From: Methanomassiliicoccales archaeon
GTDB taxonomy: Archaea > Thermoplasmatota > Thermoplasmata > Methanomassiliicoccales > UBA472
Length of the DNA: 64,000 nucleotides
Direction of reading: 5' to 3'
NCBI GenBank assembly: GCA_016926075.1
Contig: JAFGPG010000069.1
Span: 10,313-74,312, forward strand
The stretch's first letter is position 1. Each line of letters starts with the position of its first letter. The position numbers were made by a program, and so were the translations under genes. The notes below the pieces were generated by a model that saw nothing but the letters and a program-made list of their open reading frames with translations, searched no databases and had not been told where the DNA came from. This document shows, piece after piece, positions 42,735 through 60,307 of this stretch.

Positions 42735-42809
42735 GGCCGAGACCGCGATTTGAACGCGGGTCTAGGGATCCACAGTCCCACAGGATAACCAGGCTACCCC
42801 ATCCCGGCC
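42735..42809 (-). tRNA. tRNA-His (anticodon GUG) with a genome-encoded G-1
   Basis: Hand-folded cloverleaf. 8-bp acceptor stem including G-1:C73. D-arm has A14, G18G19 and A21. Anticodon loop CUGUGGA, T-arm CCGCG/TTCAAAT/CGCGG. No encoded CCA. Confidence 0.88.
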
Positions 42810-48722: not shown

Positions 48723-49658
48723 ATGGAAGGGCGCCGCGTGCTCATCACCGGTGGTGCGGGCTTCATCGGCTCGCATCTGGCGGAGGCCCTGTGCGAAAGG
48801 AACGAGGTCATCGTGCTGGACGACCTCTCCAGCGGTCGGAGGGAGAACCTGCAGGGGATGGAGGTGGAGCTGGTCCAGGGCAGCATCAGGGACCCTGAAC
48901 TGGTCCGAAGGACCATGGAAGGGGTAGACTATGTCTTCCACGAGGCGGCCATCGCCTCAGTGCCGAAGAGCCTGGACGATCCTATCGCAAGCAATCAGGT
49001 CAACGTCTGCGGCACCCTGAGGGTGCTCTGCGAGGCCCGGGAGGCCAAGGTGCGCAAGCTGGTCTTCGCCTCCTCCGCGGCCATATATGGGGATGCCCCT
49101 ACGGAGATCAAGAGGGAGGGGGACCCTCCAGTGCCCATATCCCCTTACGCGGTCACCAAGCTCACCGGGGAGCTCTATTGCCGTAACTTCTGGGTCAATT
49201 TCGGACTGCCCACCTGCTGTCTGCGTTATTTCAACGTCTACGGCCCCCGCCAGGACCCCTCCTCCGAGTACGCCGCAGCGGTCCCCCGCTTCATTGACGC
49301 CGCCAGTAGGGGTCAGCCCCTCACCATATACGGGGACGGGGAGCAGACCCGGGACTTCACCTACGTGGGCGACGTGGTGCAGGCCAACATCCTGGCCGCC
49401 CTGGACGTTGATCATAACGGAGAGGTGTTCAACGTCGCGCGCCAGGAGGCCGTCTCCGTGAACGAGCTGGCCAGGACCGTCCTGGAGCTCTTTGGGCGAG
49501 AGGTGGAGGGGGGAACGGTCCATCTCCCTCCGCGACAGGGCGACGTACGCCATTCGATGGCCGACATTAGCAGGGCCCGGGCCGATCTGGGATATCATCC
49601 GGAATTCGACATGCGCAGGGGGCTGGAACTGACCTTACAGGCCCTTGAGAACCGATGA
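48723..49658 (+). CDS. NAD-dependent nucleotide-sugar epimerase/dehydratase (GalE-like SDR)
   Basis: Real part of track ORF 48402..49658. ATG 48723 has AAGGAGGA 5 nt upstream (alternative ATG 48708). ITGGAGFIGSH; YxxxK as YAVTK. Confidence 0.88.
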   Translation: MEGRRVLITGGAGFIGSHLAEALCERNEVIVLDDLSSGRRENLQGMEVELVQGSIRDPELVRRTMEGVDYVFHEAAIASVPKSLDDPIASNQVNVCGTLRVLCEAREAKVRKLVFASSAAIYGDAPTEIKREGDPPVPISPYAVTKLTGELYCRNFWVNFGLPTCCLRYFNVYGPRQDPSSEYAAAVPRFIDAASRGQPLTIYGDGEQTRDFTYVGDVVQANILAALDVDHNGEVFNVARQEAVSVNELARTVLELFGREVEGGTVHLPPRQGDVRHSMADISRARADLGYHPEFDMRRGLELTLQALENR

Positions 49659-49761
49659 GAGCAACACTCCGAGCGATCGCCGGGGACCCCTTTCATCGCG
49701 TGGCCGAACGCTCATCGAAACTTAATTACGCTGGGAGGCCTATTTTACATTCGAGGTTTTG

Positions 49762-49857
49762 ATGGCGGAGTGCATTGTTTGCGGGTGCGTTCTAAAGAAG
49801 CACCAGGACAAATGCCCCATATGCGGAGCTTCTCAGACCGAAGATGATGATTATTGA
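49762..49857 (+). CDS. 31-aa zinc-ribbon mini-protein
   Basis: Below the track cutoff. MAECIVCGCVLKKHQDKCPICGASQTEDDDY has two CxxC knuckles 10 residues apart. GAGG lies 6-9 nt upstream. Confidence 0.5.
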   Translation: MAECIVCGCVLKKHQDKCPICGASQTEDDDY

Positions 49858-50309
49858 CCGCCTGTCGGGGTCCGTTTCGGCCATTTCGGGGACAGGTCCA
49901 GTCGAATGACTCCACGTCCATGTGATCGCTTGTTCTTTCCTAAGCTCACCGAGGGACTAGGGGCATTGGGATCACCGCACTGTGCGGACAAGGTCCCAGG
50001 TCAAAGGCCCTCTGTGCAGCTCCACAGTACCGCCAAGCGTATCGCCGCCTACCTCCCTCCGCCCCATCTTGAAGAACGTCGAGGAGATCGGAGCGTAAGG
50101 GCGCGTTTTGCGGTGCTATGGTATGGATCGTAAGGTCGCTGCAATGAAGTCCTAGCTAAATGCGTACAGAGATTTAAATGAAGATAGCCGTCCATGGCAG
50201 CAACGGCTTAGCGGTCCACGTATGTGAAAAAACTGAGATATATTATCTCGATAAAAAAATGAAACGTATGCGGATAAACAGCATTAACAATAGTAGATGG
50301 CACGTCAAT

Positions 50310-50364
50310 ATGGATGTATTATCCATCCATCCAAAACGGCATGGATATTTCATCCATCCATCCA
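50310..50364. promoter_or_regulatory. tandem palindromic operator candidate: 2 x ATGGAT-N5-ATCCAT(CCATCCA), 31 bp apart
   Basis: Copy 1: ATGGAT 50310-50315 / ATCCAT 50321-50326, extended to (ATCC)3A at 50321-50333. Copy 2: ATGGAT 50341-50346 / ATCCAT 50352-50357, extended at 50352-50364. Immediately upstream of the TATA-like box of the corrinoid gene. Confidence 0.6.
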
Positions 50365-50376
50365 AGGGTTTATTAC

Positions 50377-50424
50377 TTTAAATTGAAATTGGGACACAGA
50401 AAACATCTTAGGAGGAAAACTGAA
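50377..50424 (+). promoter_or_regulatory. TATA-like box and SD of the corrinoid protein gene
   Basis: TTTAAATT at 50377-50384, about 41-48 nt before the ATG. GGAGG at 50411-50415, 9 nt before ATG 50425. Confidence 0.55.
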
Positions 50425-51060
50425 ATGGCAAACTTCGACGCATTGATCGAAATAGTTGTTAAGGGGAAAATCAAGGAGGCCAAGGGAGAGACCCAGAAGC
50501 TCCTTGATTCGGGGATCTCCGCAAAAGAAATCATCTTCAACGGGCTAAGTGAGGCCATGAAGATAGTGGGCGACAAGTACGAGAAGAAGGAGTACTTCCT
50601 GCCTCAGGTTCTTCTTTCGGCGCAGACCCTGTACCAGGGATTGAACTTAGCCTTGCCAAAGTTGGACAAGACCTCGGCCGATGCAGCCGGTAAGATCGTC
50701 ATCTGCGTGGTCGAAGGTGATGTGCACGATATCGGCAAGAACATCTGCAAGGCCCTGCTGACCGGCGCCGGTAACACCATGTTCGACCTGGGCCGCGATG
50801 TGCCCCTGAAGGACATTGTAGACAAGGCCAAGACCGAGAGCGCCCAGATCATAGCCACCTCGACCCTTATGACCCCCACCCTGGCGGGCATGAAGGAGAT
50901 CGAGAAGATGCTCAAAGAGGGCGGCTTAAAGGGACAGATCAAGACCATGGTCGGTGGCGGTGCCACTTCCCCGGACTTCGCCAAGTCCATCGGTGCAGAC
51001 GGCTGGGGCTACGACGCCAACGAGGCCGTCCGCGTGGCCATTGACCTGCTGAAGAAGTAA
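50425..51060 (+). CDS. methyltransferase-cognate corrinoid (B12-binding) protein, MtaC/MtbC/MtsB family
   Basis: 211 aa, the real part of track ORF 50314..51060. Contains an N-terminal helical cap, VEGDVHDIGKN (DxHxxG), ATSTLMT (SxL) and MVGGG. Strong SD and highly-expressed-looking codon usage. Confidence 0.9.
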   Translation: MANFDALIEIVVKGKIKEAKGETQKLLDSGISAKEIIFNGLSEAMKIVGDKYEKKEYFLPQVLLSAQTLYQGLNLALPKLDKTSADAAGKIVICVVEGDVHDIGKNICKALLTGAGNTMFDLGRDVPLKDIVDKAKTESAQIIATSTLMTPTLAGMKEIEKMLKEGGLKGQIKTMVGGGATSPDFAKSIGADGWGYDANEAVRVAIDLLKK

Positions 51061-51062
51061 AA

Positions 51063-51090
51063 GGGGCATACGCCCCGTCACATTTTTTTT
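51063..51090 (+). terminator. hairpin plus T8 terminator after the corrinoid gene
   Basis: GGGGC-ATAC-GCCCC (51063-51076), then TTTTTTTT (51083-51090), starting 3 nt after the stop. Confidence 0.65.
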
Positions 51091-51179
51091 ATCACCAATT
51101 GTTAATATAATATATTTACAATAAAAATTTTGTGCACTCTATTATACAGGAAGGTCATGCCTATACTAGGAGCGTTCCC

Positions 51180-51995
51180 ATGAGCGATAATGGCATATCG
51201 GTAGAGAAGGAACTGCTGGAACTGAAGGACCGGGTGAAGGAGATGGACATGGGGTTGAGACACATACTAGCCCTCTTACAGACCTCACCGCCCCTGTCCC
51301 ATCCCGTCGACCGGACGTTCCTCCTGCTGCGGGAGGAGGCCAGAGATAGGGCGCTCACCCGTCTGGACGCGGGAATGGTAAAAAGATGCGAACTGCGCAA
51401 GGACTGTCGACATAAGTTCGCCGATTTCCTGGAACGGAACCTGGAGCTGCTCGACCTTCCGCGTATAGAGGAGGACAACATCCTATCGCGCATGGAGGAG
51501 CTGGAGGCCATGAGGTCCAAGGCGGTGCCCGGACGATGTGACGACTGCTTTGACGAGGTGGGCACGCTCTTCAGGCAGCAACAGGAGCTGATGAAGGCGC
51601 TGAGACTATACCGAAGCCATGAGGAGGTGAGGCAGAGCCTGGACACGCTTCCGGAGGCGGAGGTGGTGAAGGAACTGCTCGAACCCCTATCTAATGTTCA
51701 ACGACTGAACATAATGAAATCCCTGGTCAAGGCCCCCCGCTCCTTCTCCGAGCTTTCCTCTGTCACCAACCTGCGCGGTGGCAACCTGCTGTACCATCTG
51801 CAGCGACTGACCGCGACGCAGATGATCGTTCAGAGGGGCGGCCGGGGCGACTATGCGCTCTCCGAGAGAGGGACCAGGGCCCTAGAGATGGTCAACGACC
51901 TGTACCTGAGGACCCTGACCACAGCGACGGGGAAGGTGACGGAGAAGGCAGATCAGGGTCGTACTGTGATGGGACCAAGTCCTCCTTGCCCATGA
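51180..51995 (+). CDS. ArsR-type wHTH regulator with a long N-terminal coiled-coil / 4-Cys domain
   Basis: ATG 51180 (track GTG 51132). C-terminal LEPLSNVQRLNIMKSLVKAPRSFSELSSVTNLRGGNLLYHLQRLTATQMI is an ArsR HTH. N-terminal ~165 aa are heptad-rich with Cx5C (C70, C76) and CxxC (C120, C123). Confidence 0.8.
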   Translation: MSDNGISVEKELLELKDRVKEMDMGLRHILALLQTSPPLSHPVDRTFLLLREEARDRALTRLDAGMVKRCELRKDCRHKFADFLERNLELLDLPRIEEDNILSRMEELEAMRSKAVPGRCDDCFDEVGTLFRQQQELMKALRLYRSHEEVRQSLDTLPEAEVVKELLEPLSNVQRLNIMKSLVKAPRSFSELSSVTNLRGGNLLYHLQRLTATQMIVQRGGRGDYALSERGTRALEMVNDLYLRTLTTATGKVTEKADQGRTVMGPSPPCP

Positions 51996-52042: not shown

Positions 52043-53437
52043 ATGGTCACCCTCAGCAAAGGGGAGAGTGGAGGAATGAGGACACCATCCAGCCGCATTA
52101 TCATCGGTCTGATATTGGGCTGGGTCCTGACCTTCGAGGGCTTCTTCGCCCTGTCCGTCGCGGACTCGGCGACCATTGCGGGCTTCGGAGGGATCAAGGG
52201 GACAACATTCACCACGGCCGCGGTGCAGTTGGTCCTTCTGGGCGTCATCATCTCCATCAGTTGGGCTTTCCAGTCCTGCAAGTTCGGTATCCACCTTTCC
52301 CTGCCGCCCAAGGTCATGACGGCCACGGTCTATCTGACCATGCTCCTGGTCACGATGGAAGGGCTGGTCGTGGTGCTCCTGGCCGGGGACGTCACGGTCG
52401 CCGGTTGGGGAACGGTGGGCAAGGAGTACATCGCCTTGGTCGGAGCGCAGATGTGCGCCCTGGGACTCCTCTCCCTCCGCAACTGGAGACTACGGGAAAC
52501 CCCACCCACCAACTGGGCCGTGGACCTGCTCGGTTCTCTGGCCGCCGTTCTGCTGGTATTGGAAGGGTTGACCGCCATGGGCATCGCCGGTAGGACCGTC
52601 ATCGAGGATTTCGGAGGGATAGGGGGAGGCACCTTCTACCTGGCAGGGATACAGCTCTTGCTATTGGGCCTCTTGCTGTTCATCATGTGGACCTTACCGC
52701 CCCGACTTTCCTTCTCCCGACTAGGTAGGTTGCTGAGCGATAGATGGTCCTGGGTCATAGTGATGACCTTGGGAACGCTGGCGGCATTGGAAGCATTGGT
52801 CGCTTCCACCCTGGCCGGGAGGATGGTCATCGCGGACATTGGCAGCATCTCCAAGATATACGTGGTGGTCGGATGCTCCCAGTTATTCGTTCTCGGCCTG
52901 GCAGCCCCGTTGCTCTGGAAGCTTCGCAACGCTTCTCTCGACCGCAGGGCGCTCCTGGACCTCCTGAACGTCACCGCCATGACCGTGCTGGCCTTCGAAG
53001 GGGTCTTCGCCATAGGTCTGGCGGCCCAGACCCATATCGATGGCCTGGGCATCATACGGGAGCGGACCTTCCTCCTGGCCGGAGCGCAGTTGCTGGTCCT
53101 GTCCCTACTAGGCCTGTCCGCTTTTTTTGTCCAGGGAAACCTGCTCCTGGGCAGGTTGGGCAACAGAGCTTTCTCCTCACTGCCCGTCGCAGTCCTGACC
53201 TTGATCGGGCTGGAAGGGTTGGCGGTGACGCTCCTAGCGTCCAATATGAACATCTCAGATTTCGGGGGAATAAGGGAACGTTATGTTCTGCTAGGAGGGG
53301 TTCAGATGGTCCTGCTCTCAACGACGGCCCTACTCCTTTGGGTTCGTTCGCGCCGTATCCCGCCCAGGTGCATGAAGGTGGCCATATCGGCCGCGATCTT
53401 CCTTGTGCTCATGATCCCGATAGCCATTCTTCTTTGA
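52043..53437 (+). CDS. polytopic membrane protein built from six tandem ~72-aa two-helix repeats (unknown family)
   Basis: 464 aa. Each repeat reads helix-with-Glu (xxEGxx), loop (I/V)x(D/G)(F/W/I/L)G(G/T/S)I, then helix (G/A)xQ(L/M)xxLxLL...W. The Glu residues sit at aa 32, 106, 174, 250, 319 and 391. Alternative start ATG 52076. Confidence 0.8.
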   Translation: MVTLSKGESGGMRTPSSRIIIGLILGWVLTFEGFFALSVADSATIAGFGGIKGTTFTTAAVQLVLLGVIISISWAFQSCKFGIHLSLPPKVMTATVYLTMLLVTMEGLVVVLLAGDVTVAGWGTVGKEYIALVGAQMCALGLLSLRNWRLRETPPTNWAVDLLGSLAAVLLVLEGLTAMGIAGRTVIEDFGGIGGGTFYLAGIQLLLLGLLLFIMWTLPPRLSFSRLGRLLSDRWSWVIVMTLGTLAALEALVASTLAGRMVIADIGSISKIYVVVGCSQLFVLGLAAPLLWKLRNASLDRRALLDLLNVTAMTVLAFEGVFAIGLAAQTHIDGLGIIRERTFLLAGAQLLVLSLLGLSAFFVQGNLLLGRLGNRAFSSLPVAVLTLIGLEGLAVTLLASNMNISDFGGIRERYVLLGGVQMVLLSTTALLLWVRSRRIPPRCMKVAISAAIFLVLMIPIAILL

Positions 53438-53490: not shown

Positions 53491-55467
53491 ATGACGAGGC
53501 GGAGATTAGGGCTGGGAATAGACACCGGTGGTACCTACACCGATGCGGCGGTGGTGGACATGAGCGACCTGACGGTCTTGGCCAAGGCCAAGTCCCCCAC
53601 CACCTACCACGACCTATCCATCGGGGTCATGGGAGCCATCGACGGCATACTGGAACAGAAGACCTATGACCTGGAGGACATCGCCTTCGTCGGTCTCTCC
53701 ACCACTCTGGCCACCAACTCCATACTTACCGGCAAAGGGGGAAAGGTAGGGCATATCGGTATCGGGTGGACCCCCCAGCCCAACTTCAGCTCCGGAGCGG
53801 ACATGGACGCCTATGTCAAGGGAGGGCACGGGGTGTGGGCCCAGCAGCAGGAGCCTCTGGACATCGAGGCTGTTATGGAGGCCATCGAGAGGATGAAGGG
53901 AGAGGTGGACTCCTTCGTCGTTTCCGCGCACTTCAGCGTTTACAATCCGGTACATGAGAGGGATGTCGCCGAACTCATCAAGAAGATGAGCGGCCTACCC
54001 GTTGTGCTGGGGCATCAGCTCAGTTCCGAGCTGGGGGTCCCCCAGCGTTCCGTCACCGCCGTGCTCAACGCGCGGCTCCTGCCCGTCATATCAGAGTTCC
54101 TGGAGGGGGTGGAGAGGTCCCTTACCGAACGGGGGGTCACCGCCACTATACTGGTGTTCAAGGGCGACGGTACTTTGATGAACCTGAACATGGCCCGGGA
54201 GAGACCGGTGGAGACCATACTCTCCGGGCCAGCGGCCAGCCTCATGGGCGGCAAGATGCTGTGCAACGAGCAGAACTGCATAGTGGTGGACATAGGGGGC
54301 ACATCCACCGACATCGCCTATCTCGACGATGGGTTCCCCCGCATATCCAAGGAAGGGGCCTCCGTGGGCAATTGGCGCACCAGGGTGAAGGCCATCGACA
54401 TATGGACGGTGGGCTTGGGAGGGGACTCCCACGTCATCTCGGACCAGAGGGGCATGTTCAAGATCGGACCGGAGAGGGTCATCCCCCTGGCCATCGCCGC
54501 CTCCAGCCATCCGTTCATCAAGGAGAAGATGGTGACCACCAGCGAGACGAACTACTATCTGCACGTGGAGAGGGACACCAGCAAGCTGACCTCTCGGGAG
54601 AAGGAGATCTACGACTTCGTCAAGGCCAATCCCATGTGCACCCTGAACGAGATCAGGATGGGCGCACCGGAGGTCTACAACTACCGCAACATAGTGAACA
54701 GGATCAAGGAGCGCGGGTTCCTGCAGATGACCGGGCTCACCCCCACCGATTTCATGCACGTACAGGGCACCTTCGATCGCTTCGACACGGAGGCCGCCCG
54801 CCTGGGCGTGGAGTTCATGGCCAACTGGGGACACATGTCCAAAGAGGATTACATGAACGCCTTCCAGAAGGAGATGATCACCAGAGTGGGTGAGGAGGTC
54901 ATGCGGAAGGTCATCCTGGACGAGGTGGGGGAGGTCTCGGAGAACGGCGGCTTCAACTATCTCCTGCGGGCCACGGTGAACGGCAACAACGGGAGCAGCA
55001 TCACCGCTAGGACCAAGCTTGACCGGCCTCTGGTGGGCATTGGGGCGCCCACGCACATCTACATGCCTCCCCTGGAGGACAGGATGGAGGTCAAGGTCAT
55101 CATCCCCCGGGACCACGACGTGGGGAATGCGGTAGGGGCGGTGTGCAGTCAGATATCAGAGACCATCAGCGTTCAGGTGTACCCGGACAAGGACAATCGC
55201 TTCTTCGTGCTCACCCCCTTCGGTCCTCCCAGGACCTTCACGCACATCTCCTCGGCGCTCGAGAGCGCACGCCGTCAGGCCGAGGAATGGGTCCGTAGGA
55301 GGGCCTACGAGGCGGGGGCGGAGAACATACGCGTGCGCAGCGATACCTACGAGAACACCTACTACGGCGGATTCCTGGTCGAGGGGGAGCAGACCGCCTG
55401 GATCGACGTGGTGGCCCGGGCCACCGGGGAACCACGTGTCCAGCCCAGGAAGAACAGCTCACTCTAG
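53491..55467 (+). CDS. hydantoinase/oxoprolinase-family (ASKHA ATPase fold) protein
   Basis: 658 aa. LGIDTGGTYTDAAVVD N-terminus and VDIGGTSTDIA second phosphate motif. Confidence 0.8.
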   Translation: MTRRRLGLGIDTGGTYTDAAVVDMSDLTVLAKAKSPTTYHDLSIGVMGAIDGILEQKTYDLEDIAFVGLSTTLATNSILTGKGGKVGHIGIGWTPQPNFSSGADMDAYVKGGHGVWAQQQEPLDIEAVMEAIERMKGEVDSFVVSAHFSVYNPVHERDVAELIKKMSGLPVVLGHQLSSELGVPQRSVTAVLNARLLPVISEFLEGVERSLTERGVTATILVFKGDGTLMNLNMARERPVETILSGPAASLMGGKMLCNEQNCIVVDIGGTSTDIAYLDDGFPRISKEGASVGNWRTRVKAIDIWTVGLGGDSHVISDQRGMFKIGPERVIPLAIAASSHPFIKEKMVTTSETNYYLHVERDTSKLTSREKEIYDFVKANPMCTLNEIRMGAPEVYNYRNIVNRIKERGFLQMTGLTPTDFMHVQGTFDRFDTEAARLGVEFMANWGHMSKEDYMNAFQKEMITRVGEEVMRKVILDEVGEVSENGGFNYLLRATVNGNNGSSITARTKLDRPLVGIGAPTHIYMPPLEDRMEVKVIIPRDHDVGNAVGAVCSQISETISVQVYPDKDNRFFVLTPFGPPRTFTHISSALESARRQAEEWVRRRAYEAGAENIRVRSDTYENTYYGGFLVEGEQTAWIDVVARATGEPRVQPRKNSSL

Positions 55468-55788: not shown

Positions 55789-55925
55789 GGAACTCAGCTA
55801 TTTCGAGAATATTTCAAATGGTATTTATTGTCTACATTAACATCGTTAAATCCATCATGGAAAGGTTATTATACACTCGATGACCGTTTACTGTTTCAAA
55901 TAATATCGAAATTGTAGGTGGCTTG
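55789..55925. promoter_or_regulatory. AT-rich divergent promoter region containing palindrome TCCAT-C-ATGGA
   Basis: AT-rich island. Palindrome at 55851-55861, TATA-like ttattataca downstream, SD GTAGGTGG before ATG 55926. Confidence 0.5.
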
Positions 55926-59077: not shown

Positions 59078-59272
59078 ATCTATTCCCCCTATAATCCAGT
59101 AGGATTCTGACCTGTCGGAATATCCATTTTACTGTACATTAATCTATCGGGTCTTTCGATGCGTATACTCTCATATAAACAAGTTCAACCCTTGAACACT
59201 GGCTGGATGGTCTTTCTACGAAACGATTGTAAAATTATTAACAAGTGTTCAATCATCCCGGACTTTCCAGTC
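59078..59272. promoter_or_regulatory. AT-rich internal promoter region upstream of the MtaA-like gene
   Basis: 195-bp AT-rich spacer. The minus strand carries TTTATATGA (59171-59180), and the palindrome GTTCAA-CCC-TTGAAC (59183-59197) lies just upstream of it. Confidence 0.45.
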
Positions 59273-60307
59273 CTATGCCTTCCACCCCTGTACAGCCTCC
59301 CTGAGGGCGACGATGTTACCCAAGGGGGTCTTGAAGGGCATCTCACATCCGGGAGCGATCATGAAGCCCGCCCCCTCCCCCCAATCCCCGTGCATGGCAT
59401 CGACCTCCATGACCACCTCCTCCGGCGTGCCCTGGAAGAGCAGGAACATGTGGTCTATGCCCCCGATGACCGTGGTCCGTCCCCTGAACTTTTCATAGGA
59501 GGAGGCACGGTCCTCTCTTCGGGGAGTGAAGTGCAGGGCGACCGGCCGCATGGCCAGATATCCATCCAGATATGGATCGGAGGAGCAATTGTGCACTATG
59601 GAACCCAACCCCTGCGACGTGAAGGAGGACAGAACCTTGGAGAGGTTCCCCAGGTCGAAACGTTCCAAACCCTCAACAGAATTGGTGTCCAGCCCGCAGC
59701 TCCCGTCCTCTATGAACACGTGCCCTACGCCCATCTGCGCCAACCGCTCCCCGTAGGCCGCCGAGGACTGGACCATGACGTCCATCAGCCCCTGGACCAG
59801 GTCCGGATCGGTCCATGTGGCTATGAGCAGAGATTCGTATCCCATCACCTCCCCTGCCATCATCATGGGTCCCGTGATGCATCCCAGCACCGGCAGCTCC
59901 TTGCCCACACTCTCCTGCATGAGCCCCGCGGCCCGCAGGGGGACCGACCATCCCTCGTCCTTCAGGGGGTCCACCGGACGCACGCGGTCCAGTTCGGAAA
60001 GGGAGGCGATGGCGTAGCGCTCCACGCGGGGATAGTAGTCCCGTTCCGGCCATCTCCAGCTGGTACCATGGGCATGCGCCTCCACCAAAAGGTCCCCCCA
60101 ACCGGCCATGACGTTGTCGAAGCCGGTCACCCGCTGAGCGGCGATGGCGATGCGGGCAAAGGCCTCGGGGTCCTCCATGCCCTGACGGATGCTCAGGCCG
60201 GTCGCTCCCAGGATGCTATTGGCCGCTCCCAGATGCTGGTACATGATGGGCGGATGATCGACCGCCTCACTTTTTAACGCCCCTTCGAAACGTTCCCGGG
60301 GGGTCAT
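59273..60307 (-). CDS. second URO-D-family, Zn-type corrinoid methyltransferase paralog (substrate unknown)
   Basis: 344 aa, MTPRERFEGAL. HxC motif as IVHNCSS and APGCE downstream. Only distantly similar to the neighbouring MtaA-like protein. Confidence 0.8.
   Translation of the reverse strand: MTPRERFEGALKSEAVDHPPIMYQHLGAANSILGATGLSIRQGMEDPEAFARIAIAAQRVTGFDNVMAGWGDLLVEAHAHGTSWRWPERDYYPRVERYAIASLSELDRVRPVDPLKDEGWSVPLRAAGLMQESVGKELPVLGCITGPMMMAGEVMGYESLLIATWTDPDLVQGLMDVMVQSSAAYGERLAQMGVGHVFIEDGSCGLDTNSVEGLERFDLGNLSKVLSSFTSQGLGSIVHNCSSDPYLDGYLAMRPVALHFTPRREDRASSYEKFRGRTTVIGGIDHMFLLFQGTPEEVVMEVDAMHGDWGEGAGFMIAPGCEMPFKTPLGNIVALREAVQGWKA

Follow-up and report, generated by a model that had tools for sequence, protein, structure and literature searches.

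Several described archaeal systems resemble the element reported here, a box of the form TGGAT-N5-ATCCATCCAT found upstream of a corrinoid methyl-carrier gene in 64 kb of DNA from a Methanomassiliicoccales archaeon (the whole stretch that was analysed, referred to as the window). The Thermococcales glycolytic motif (TGM; TATCAC-N5-GTGATA) of TrmB and TrmBL1 is, like the box, a 6-N5-6 inverted repeat and a regulon-wide promoter motif serving one metabolic module in one archaeal order (PMC4706686). TrmBL1 activates from sites upstream of the B recognition element (BRE) and TATA box and represses from sites downstream of them, and the activating position is the one that matches the placement of the box (PMC4706686). 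The half-sites of the two motifs are unrelated, so the box does not conform to the TGM consensus. The TGM also occurs at many positions, whereas the box holds a nearly fixed distance of 8 nt from the TATA box and has an extended, asymmetric proximal arm, and no TrmB-family gene is linked to it here. The sites of Lrp/AsnC proteins, as described for Ss-LrpB (5'-TTGCAAAATTTGCAA-3', in three regularly spaced 15-bp boxes; PMC1802622), share with the box a 15-bp palindrome with 5-bp arms, their weak-pair centre has a partial counterpart in it, and both occur as regularly phased multiples. They differ in half-site sequence, and most box promoters carry a single box. Ptr2 of Methanocaldococcus binds upstream activating sites and works as an activator from upstream of the core promoter. 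TFB-RF1 (PF1088) of Pyrococcus has its site directly upstream of the BRE and activates through recruitment of TFB, which is the mechanism proposed below for the box, but it is known for one operon and has an unrelated sequence that is not a regulon-wide box (PMC5937170).

Two further comparisons concern the target genes and a neighbouring protein. Corrinoid/MT1 operons, the same gene class as the box targets, are under transcriptional control in Methanosarcina by AmzR (bioRxiv 10.1101/2025.05.05.652248), the Msr family, and MreA (PMC3419521). These regulators belong to another order and no shared cis motif is known for them, with no common motif for MreA (PMC3419521), and the box is absent from the Methanosarcina corrinoid loci that were examined. 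AmzR, in addition, binds a 100-bp region over the TATA box, BRE and start site with a basic coiled coil and not a winged helix (bioRxiv 10.1101/2025.05.05.652248). ArsR/SmtB pairs such as BigR, NolR, SqrR and CzrA are comparable in that the regulator encoded beside the corrinoid gene in the window shares their fold and that dimers of this family bind inverted repeats. Unlike in these pairs, the regulator is not co-transcribed behind the box and its distribution does not track the box; it has no cysteine in the winged helix and carries an extra four-cysteine N-terminal domain of ~150 amino acids. Full-text literature searches for the motif and for regulation in Methanomassiliicoccales returned no description of the motif, nor of a cis-element or regulator for the order, and a search with the raw sequence returned primers only. 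The motif and its regulon appear to be new, and a palindromic factor site beside an archaeal core promoter is of a familiar kind.

The box is conserved at corrinoid-gene promoters

The window contains two copies of the box. A preliminary description of this DNA had reported a tandem of 2 x ATGGAT-N5-ATCCAT with a shared extension, and both the coordinates and the 31-bp spacing are reproduced in the sequence, which reads ATGGAT gtatt ATCCAT at 50310–50326 and ATGGAT atttc ATCCAT at 50341–50357, each extended rightward as ATGGAT-N5-ATCCATCCATCCAA. A direct-repeat search delimits 25-nt copies at 50310–50334 (distal) and 50341–50365 (proximal), both on the plus strand, which are 88% identical and 31 bp apart from start to start. 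The core, TGGAT-N5-ATCCATCCA, occupies 50311–50329 in the distal copy and 50342–50360 in the proximal copy, the latter being the site conserved throughout the order. In the window the right arm is made up of 2.5–3 tandem ATCC units, and the half-site centres of TGGAT-N5-ATCCA are 10 bp apart, placing the inverted half-sites about one helical turn from each other. ATGGAT-N5-ATCCAT matches the window three times, in overlapping registers and all at 50310–50365, compared with 0.19 matches expected and none of 100 shuffles reaching three; there is no match in the 64 kb outside this locus. A weight matrix trained solely on sites from outside the window's clade scores the proximal copy at 35.5 bits and the distal copy at 34.4 bits against a shuffle maximum of 14.4, and the only other signals that stand out in the window come from these two copies themselves, read in overlapping shifted registers or on the reverse strand.

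Two other candidates in the window were rejected. The palindrome TCCAT-C-ATGGA ahead of the permease gene, presented earlier as a related site, does exist at 55851–55861, but it has reversed half-site polarity, a spacer of 1 nt and a matrix score of less than 8 bits; likeness to the box near the permease gene is limited to a single ATCCATC half-site with a TATA box after it. An RNA element was rejected because the box lies upstream of the TATA box and is hence not transcribed, and Rfam lends no support, with nothing but tRNA-His (42735–42808) in the whole window at gathering thresholds and no match at E <= 1 in 49600–50450.

Conservation of the box was followed in a scan of a genome collection with the window corrinoid protein, which gave 79 loci; related loci were taken as +/-10 kb around the looked-up proteins and are cited by L numbers. 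TGGAT-N5-ATCCATCCA is present at two or fewer mismatches in 29 of 29 orthologous loci having upstream sequence (protein identity 59–90%), at 65–96 nt ahead of the tblastn match and within surrounding DNA that is unalignable. Most paralogous corrinoid genes of the order (41–53% identical), with a URO-D-type methyltransferase of ~365 amino acids behind them, are likewise preceded by the box, as are the second corrinoid paralogues inside the same loci and an MtaC-like gene. The exact core occurs 43 times in 827 kb of related loci and not once in 50 block shuffles, and 42 of the 43 matches lie 65–200 nt upstream of a corrinoid gene. The sole exact copy in these loci that does not front a corrinoid gene (L064 3024–3042, the same as L106) precedes an open reading frame of 503 amino acids without a Pfam match, for which transposase is an unsupported guess. 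At the corrinoid genes of Methanosarcina, anaerobic methanotrophic archaea of the ANME-2 group, Bathyarchaeota, Methylarchaceae, Hydrothermarchaeota and true bacteria there were no matches. Four contigs assigned to bacterial bins (L012, L036, L038 and L074; Anaerovoracaceae, Clostridiales, Lachnospiraceae) have corrinoid loci of the Methanomassiliicoccales type, complete with the box and an archaeal TATA promoter; they are probably archaeal and were binned wrongly.

For 56 unique promoters the consensus reads TGGATgt..cATCCATCCATaaaAg..TTTAtta, with column information near 2 bits at GGA and CCATCCA, near 2 bits at 14–15 box positions in all, and of about 0 in the flanks; these sites were partly picked by pattern match, which inflates the information content, while the 29 of 29 result is free of such bias. 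The box always contains 2.25–3 ATCC units, whose distance to the TATA box is fixed. At its centre the three middle positions are 63%, 84% and 77% A/T and the outer two ~40%, and conservation runs 5 nt past the 15-bp core on one side only.

Public metagenome contigs were scanned with TGGAT-N5-ATCCATCCAT-N6-9-TTTA, a pattern that favours the orthologue group, as it was derived from these promoters, and that is blind to gene identity. The scan gave 121 instances in 120 loci, and in 65 of the 121 a corrinoid gene in the same orientation follows within 500 nt downstream (55 orthologues, 8 paralogues and 2 MtaC-like genes). On contigs of at least 45% GC the proportion with a downstream corrinoid gene is 62 of 73. 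The other instances are mostly from AT-rich contigs, where runs such as ATCCATCCATATTTTTTTTTTA occur, and look like chance matches. Among the non-corrinoid targets, those that appear genuine are atwA (Mcr activation component A2; TIGR03269, 754 bits) in L183 and L198 and a Peripla_BP_2 substrate-binding transporter gene in L084 (2986–3015), where the box forms the perfect 9-1-9 palindrome TGGATGGATAATCCATCCA; a further copy lies ~130 nt upstream of mcrB in one Methanomassiliicoccaceae contig (L206 18499–18517), and all of these copies are exact. Two other mcrB promoters that were examined are without it.

Core promoter geometry and the tandem form

Among unique boxes preceding a corrinoid gene, a TATA-like element begins exactly 8 nt past the core in 80 of 115 and 9 nt past it in 13 of 115, and the post-core consensus is T-aaaAg-nn followed by TTTA. 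This spacing identifies TTTATTAC (50369–50376, plus strand), 8 nt past the proximal core, as the probable TATA box of the window. The preliminary description had instead assigned the TATA box to TTTAAATT, which is located where it was said to be (50377–50384) but is restricted to the window and L001, the other 12 close relatives reading GTCTCGATTG, GTTTAGATAG or similar. The conserved element is TTTATTA, which 13 of the 14 promoters in the window clade keep, L166 having TTTATAA; throughout the order it takes the form TTTAWWA. The general placement of the repeat beside the core promoter, as first described, is borne out. The spacer TCCAAGGG (50361–50368, plus strand) separates the two in the position of a BRE, and the 8-nt interval would agree with a BRE in both size and position.

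Archaeal transcription usually starts ~25–30 nt from the TATA box. The predicted start in the window, from the TATA distance, falls at 50397–50401 on the plus strand, with purines at 50398–50399; a start near 50398 would give a leader of ~26 nt. The sequence contains a Shine-Dalgarno element, AGGAGGA, at 50410–50416 (plus strand), 8 nt before the ATG at 50425, and GGAGG is retained in orthologous leaders. The initially transcribed region and leader (50385–50420, GAAATTTGGACGCAGAAAACTTCTTTGGAGGAAA) is better conserved within the clade than the inter-box spacer (L001–L005, L090 and others), and a related leader word, AAATTCTTT, recurs in more distant orthologous leaders (L007, L208, L209).

The two-box form was found in 14 distinct promoters, all from the window clade, and the spacing is exactly 31 bp in 14 of 14. 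Both cores are conserved in these promoters, while the ~12 nt between the copies vary freely and the flanks diverge. The argument made at the outset, that a 31-bp spacing puts both sites on the same face of the DNA, is supported by this invariance in the presence of a diverging spacer. In relatives of the window AAAA(C/G)G.. comes after the distal copy, resembling the BRE-like spacer of single-box promoters, so the tandem looks like a 31-bp duplication of a box-plus-BRE unit, inserted at the old TATA box.

An auxiliary TTAAC box, TTAACAATAG, lies at 50284–50293 (plus strand), 17 nt upstream of the distal copy. TTAACRATNG has two exact matches in the window compared with 0.11 expected, one at this position in the corrinoid promoter and one in the regulator promoter (51096–51105), and TTAAC(G/A)ATAGT is kept in 14 of 14 window-clade promoters. 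In other clades its position and orientation vary, in the pooled promoters its enrichment is not clearly separable from that of generic AT-rich words, and the regulator promoters of relatives have not kept it. The element could be the site of a second factor, perhaps the ArsR-like protein. Looser copies of TTAACRATNG or CAATTGTTAA are present in the permease promoter (55838–55850) and, as a pair, in the MT2 promoter (59222–59249), and the 17-mer TCACCAATTGTTAATAT is common to the window regulator promoter and the corrinoid promoter of L210.

Mode of action and candidate binding factors

From the sequence, conservation, fixed geometry and gene association of the box we infer protein binding, the sign of regulation and candidates for the factor. 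Our preferred reading, to which we give a probability of roughly 55%, is that the box, spread across the order Methanomassiliicoccales, is bound next to the BRE by a dimeric transcription factor and works most likely as an upstream activating site. A dimeric DNA-binding factor would bind TGGAT-N5-ATCCATCCAT directly upstream of both the BRE and the TATA box in corrinoid-gene promoters, with the TATA box beginning 8 nt past the box, and the bound factor would help to recruit TFB and TBP. In most genomes this would involve one box per promoter, whereas in the window lineage the 31-bp unit of box and BRE-like spacer would have been duplicated in tandem, so that the additional box would lie on the same DNA face, three helical turns upstream, presumably for cooperative occupancy. 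Activation is favoured because the box abuts the BRE at a rigid distance and covers neither the TATA box nor the start site. Several points weigh against this reading. The sign is deduced from the position of the box, and a site this close to the BRE might just as well block TFB. The arms of the box are unequal, and a symmetric dimer by itself leaves this unaccounted for; the extended arm (ATCCATCCAT against TGGAT) points to the TATA box in nearly all cases. The box is missing from 6 of ~31 Methanomassiliicoccales paralogue loci. No factor gene is consistently adjacent across seven 20-kb loci, and none associates with the box order-wide. Furthermore, the corrinoid genes of Methanomassiliicoccus luminyensis differ among themselves in their response to substrate (PMC5688252), so a box common to several systems cannot alone confer substrate specificity.

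The main rival to activation is occlusion of the BRE by a repressor, in which a bound dimer, or two cooperating dimers in the window lineage, would cover the BRE flank and block TFB and TBP until an inducer, for example a methylated substrate, corrinoid or redox signal, brings about release. As the box stops 8 nt short of the TATA box, a protein bound there would touch the BRE or overlap it, and duplicated in-phase operators are typical of cooperative repression. The 75–325-fold induction of the methylamine corrinoid genes of M. luminyensis by trimethylamine is compatible with de-repression (PMC5688252), and AmzR of Methanosarcina occupies the TATA/BRE/start-site region of MT1 promoters and thereby represses them (bioRxiv 10.1101/2025.05.05.652248). 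However, the conserved core of the box overlaps neither the TATA box nor the start site, where most archaeal repressors act (PMC4706686), and the box precedes genes that are expected to be very highly expressed, including mcrB (L206) and atwA (L183 and L198), so that we regard repression as a real but rather unlikely alternative. Both mechanisms presuppose a protein site. The box could instead have arisen by chance or slippage of the ATCC tetranucleotide, or be inherited promoter sequence that is not yet randomised, as might be suggested by a right arm built of 2.5–3 tandem ATCC units and by two window copies that are derivable from a single 31-bp duplication. This is scarcely credible given 43 core matches against none in shuffles, and 14–15 box positions near 2 bits beside flanks of about 0 bits in front of genes whose proteins are only 41–75% identical. 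In addition, the number of ATCC units and the TATA distance are fixed, unlike in a free (ATCC)n microsatellite, and the box is found at non-homologous promoters, including those of mcrB and atwA.

As to which protein may occupy the box, two families were considered, and together they are less likely than not. On larger contigs the corrinoid gene belongs to a conserved island in the order DHH, RNase H-like, (metallophosphatase/radical SAM), corrinoid, (hydantoinase-like), MT2, RamA and Lactamase_B, which continues with MtrH/MtrA, DUF169, an Lrp/AsnC regulator, YcaO, TfuA and mcrBDCGA. The regulator gene, encoding HTH_AsnC and AsnC_trans_reg domains in 157–166 amino acids, is present in 10 loci (L014, L016, L021, L119, L155, L206, L207 and L210–L212) spanning the Methanomassiliicoccus and Methanomethylophilaceae types; none was found in the 10-kb flanks of L208 and L209. 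It may bind the box as a Ptr2-like activator, the 31-bp tandem then accommodating dimers of an Lrp oligomer. Such a role is consistent with its sharing of a methanogenesis island with the corrinoid gene in two families and with the partial similarity between TGGAT-N5-ATCCA, a 15-bp palindrome whose three central positions are A/T-rich, and the regularly spaced 15-bp palindromes of Ss-LrpB with their 5-bp weak-pair centre (PMC1802622). On the other hand, the window does not contain the gene, ending inside the Lactamase_B gene upstream of the expected Lrp position, the upstream regions of the Lrp gene itself lack the box, its adjacency to ycaO and mcr may indicate another target, and the extended ATCCATCCAT arm is atypical of Lrp sites. 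We consider this assignment doubtful, though the Lrp/AsnC protein is the better order-wide candidate by these comparisons. The other family is that of the ArsR-type regulator (51180–51995, plus strand), which had been put forward as the obvious binder of both palindromes and controller of the corrinoid gene. The part of that proposal that stands is the fold: Pfam matches are to HTH_5 (25 bits against a cut-off of 22) and DUF7347, and the structure model (predicted local distance difference test score 82) has Foldseek matches to BigR, NolR, SqrR, CadC and CzrA, with target TM-scores of 0.66–0.76 over ~90–100 amino acids of the C-terminal winged helix, HlyU being also among the best structural matches. 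ArsR-family dimers bind inverted repeats, and in two clades, that of the window and another one (L006, L008–L015 and metagenome relatives), the gene comes right after the corrinoid gene that has the box. Its promoter, synteny and family distribution speak against it. The box is order-wide, but the regulator synteny is absent from Methanomassiliicoccus-type, L028/L030/L208/L209-type and Methanomethylophilaceae-type loci, as judged from loci flanking looked-up proteins, in which unlinked regulator copies would escape. In a profile search the family is also found in Methanoperedens, ANME-2, Methanosarcina and Methanobacterium, where the sampled corrinoid promoters are without the box, and three homologues looked up from Methanobacterium, Methanoperedens and Methanosarcina have no corrinoid gene or box nearby. 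The regulator gene has an AT-rich promoter of its own behind a terminator-like hairpin with a T8 run, and no box that would point to autoregulation. In several homologues, from several clades, the gene's own promoter has a different palindrome, GACC-N5-GGTC, at a constant position of about -54 from the start codon, which is a hint only, as this loose pattern is common in GC-rich DNA. The ArsR-fold neighbour is accordingly disfavoured, and we judge it distinctly improbable as the factor that binds the box.

Apart from the question of the box, the regulator has a helical N-terminal region of ~150 amino acids with four invariant cysteines, C70, C76, C120 and C123 (CX5C...CX2C). There is no cysteine in residues 165–250, so the winged-helix core lacks an alpha3 CXC/alpha5 metal-sensing site. 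The family, of ~250 amino acids and represented in L008, L009, L011, L013, L127, L176 and L204 among others, is widespread in methanogens and ANME, and is possibly a metal, Fe-S or redox sensor.

Neighbouring genes and biological meaning

The gene that the box would control (50425–51060, plus strand) encodes a corrinoid methyl carrier with Pfam B12-binding_2 and B12-binding domains. The protein falls below the cut-offs of the NCBIfam pyl_corrinoid, MtgC and MtbC models, and its closest relatives are all from Methanomassiliicoccales, at 65–98% identity. The terminator-like hairpin GGGGC-ATAC-GCCCC followed by T8 (51063–51090, plus strand) lies directly after the stop codon, and hairpin and T-run are kept in L001–L005 and related metagenome loci; the shape is that of a bacterial-style intrinsic terminator, notable in an archaeon. 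Downstream of the regulator is a multi-pass membrane protein of 464 amino acids (52043–53437) that is no methyltransferase and matches neither Pfam nor NCBIfam. It contains repeated hydrophobic modules with ..FGGI..-type motifs, and its conservation is limited to the window clade and, weakly, L007.

The gene order continues with a hydantoinase_A/GlmL-like protein (53491–55467; Hydant_A_N and Hydantoinase_A, with weak MutL/GlmL similarity) and an ArsP_1 permease. Hydant_A_N/Hydantoinase_A proteins of 660–735 amino acids are syntenic with orthologue- and paralogue-group corrinoid genes order-wide (L007–L062, L207, L209–L212), and tblastn gave 47 hits in more than 25 loci. GlmL is an accessory protein of a B12 enzyme, and by analogy the hydantoinase-like protein may be an ATP-dependent corrinoid chaperone or reactivase beside RamA. 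Further downstream the window encodes two URO-D-type methylcobamide:coenzyme M methyltransferases, a CobW GTPase and RamA. The plus-strand open reading frame at 59159–60277 was rejected as a gene, its translation being Pro/Arg/Gly/His-rich nonsense; the actual gene is on the minus strand at 59273–60307 and encodes the second URO-D/MtaA-type methyltransferase paralogue. On the upstream side, L001–L005 have a radical-SAM gene of ~360 amino acids with a terminal Zn-ribbon between the epimerase and corrinoid genes. This gene is missing from the window, which has instead ~417 nt of unrelated, partly GC-rich non-coding DNA at 49855–50271; Rfam gives no match in this interval, and tblastn finds no remnant there of the gene that was lost.

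Methanomassiliicoccales are H2-dependent methylotrophic methanogens of the human gut, rumen and wetlands that remove trimethylamine and emit methane. In M. luminyensis the methyltransferase genes are strongly regulated, with changes of 75–325-fold (PMC5688252). A broader idea, which we advance tentatively and hold to be less probable than the activating site itself, is that a single Methanomassiliicoccales-specific master regulator switches on the whole methyl-entry branch, comprising all corrinoid classes and, in some lineages, the mcr operon and component A2. As nearly all targets are cobamide-binding proteins, joined by one Peripla_BP_2 transporter gene, the signal sensed could be the availability of cobamide or cobalt instead of a methylated substrate, and the system would then be a protein-based counterpart of the bacterial B12 riboswitch control. 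A box of ~20 bp at nearly every corrinoid promoter can serve as bait for purification of the factor by DNA affinity, and the tandem variant with its 31-bp spacing amounts to a natural experiment in cooperative binding. The box further permits the regulon to be predicted from sequence in uncultured genomes and offers a native regulatory part for the genetic systems under development in these archaea, and with it the control of methyltransferase systems in gut and rumen methanogens becomes a directly testable question.

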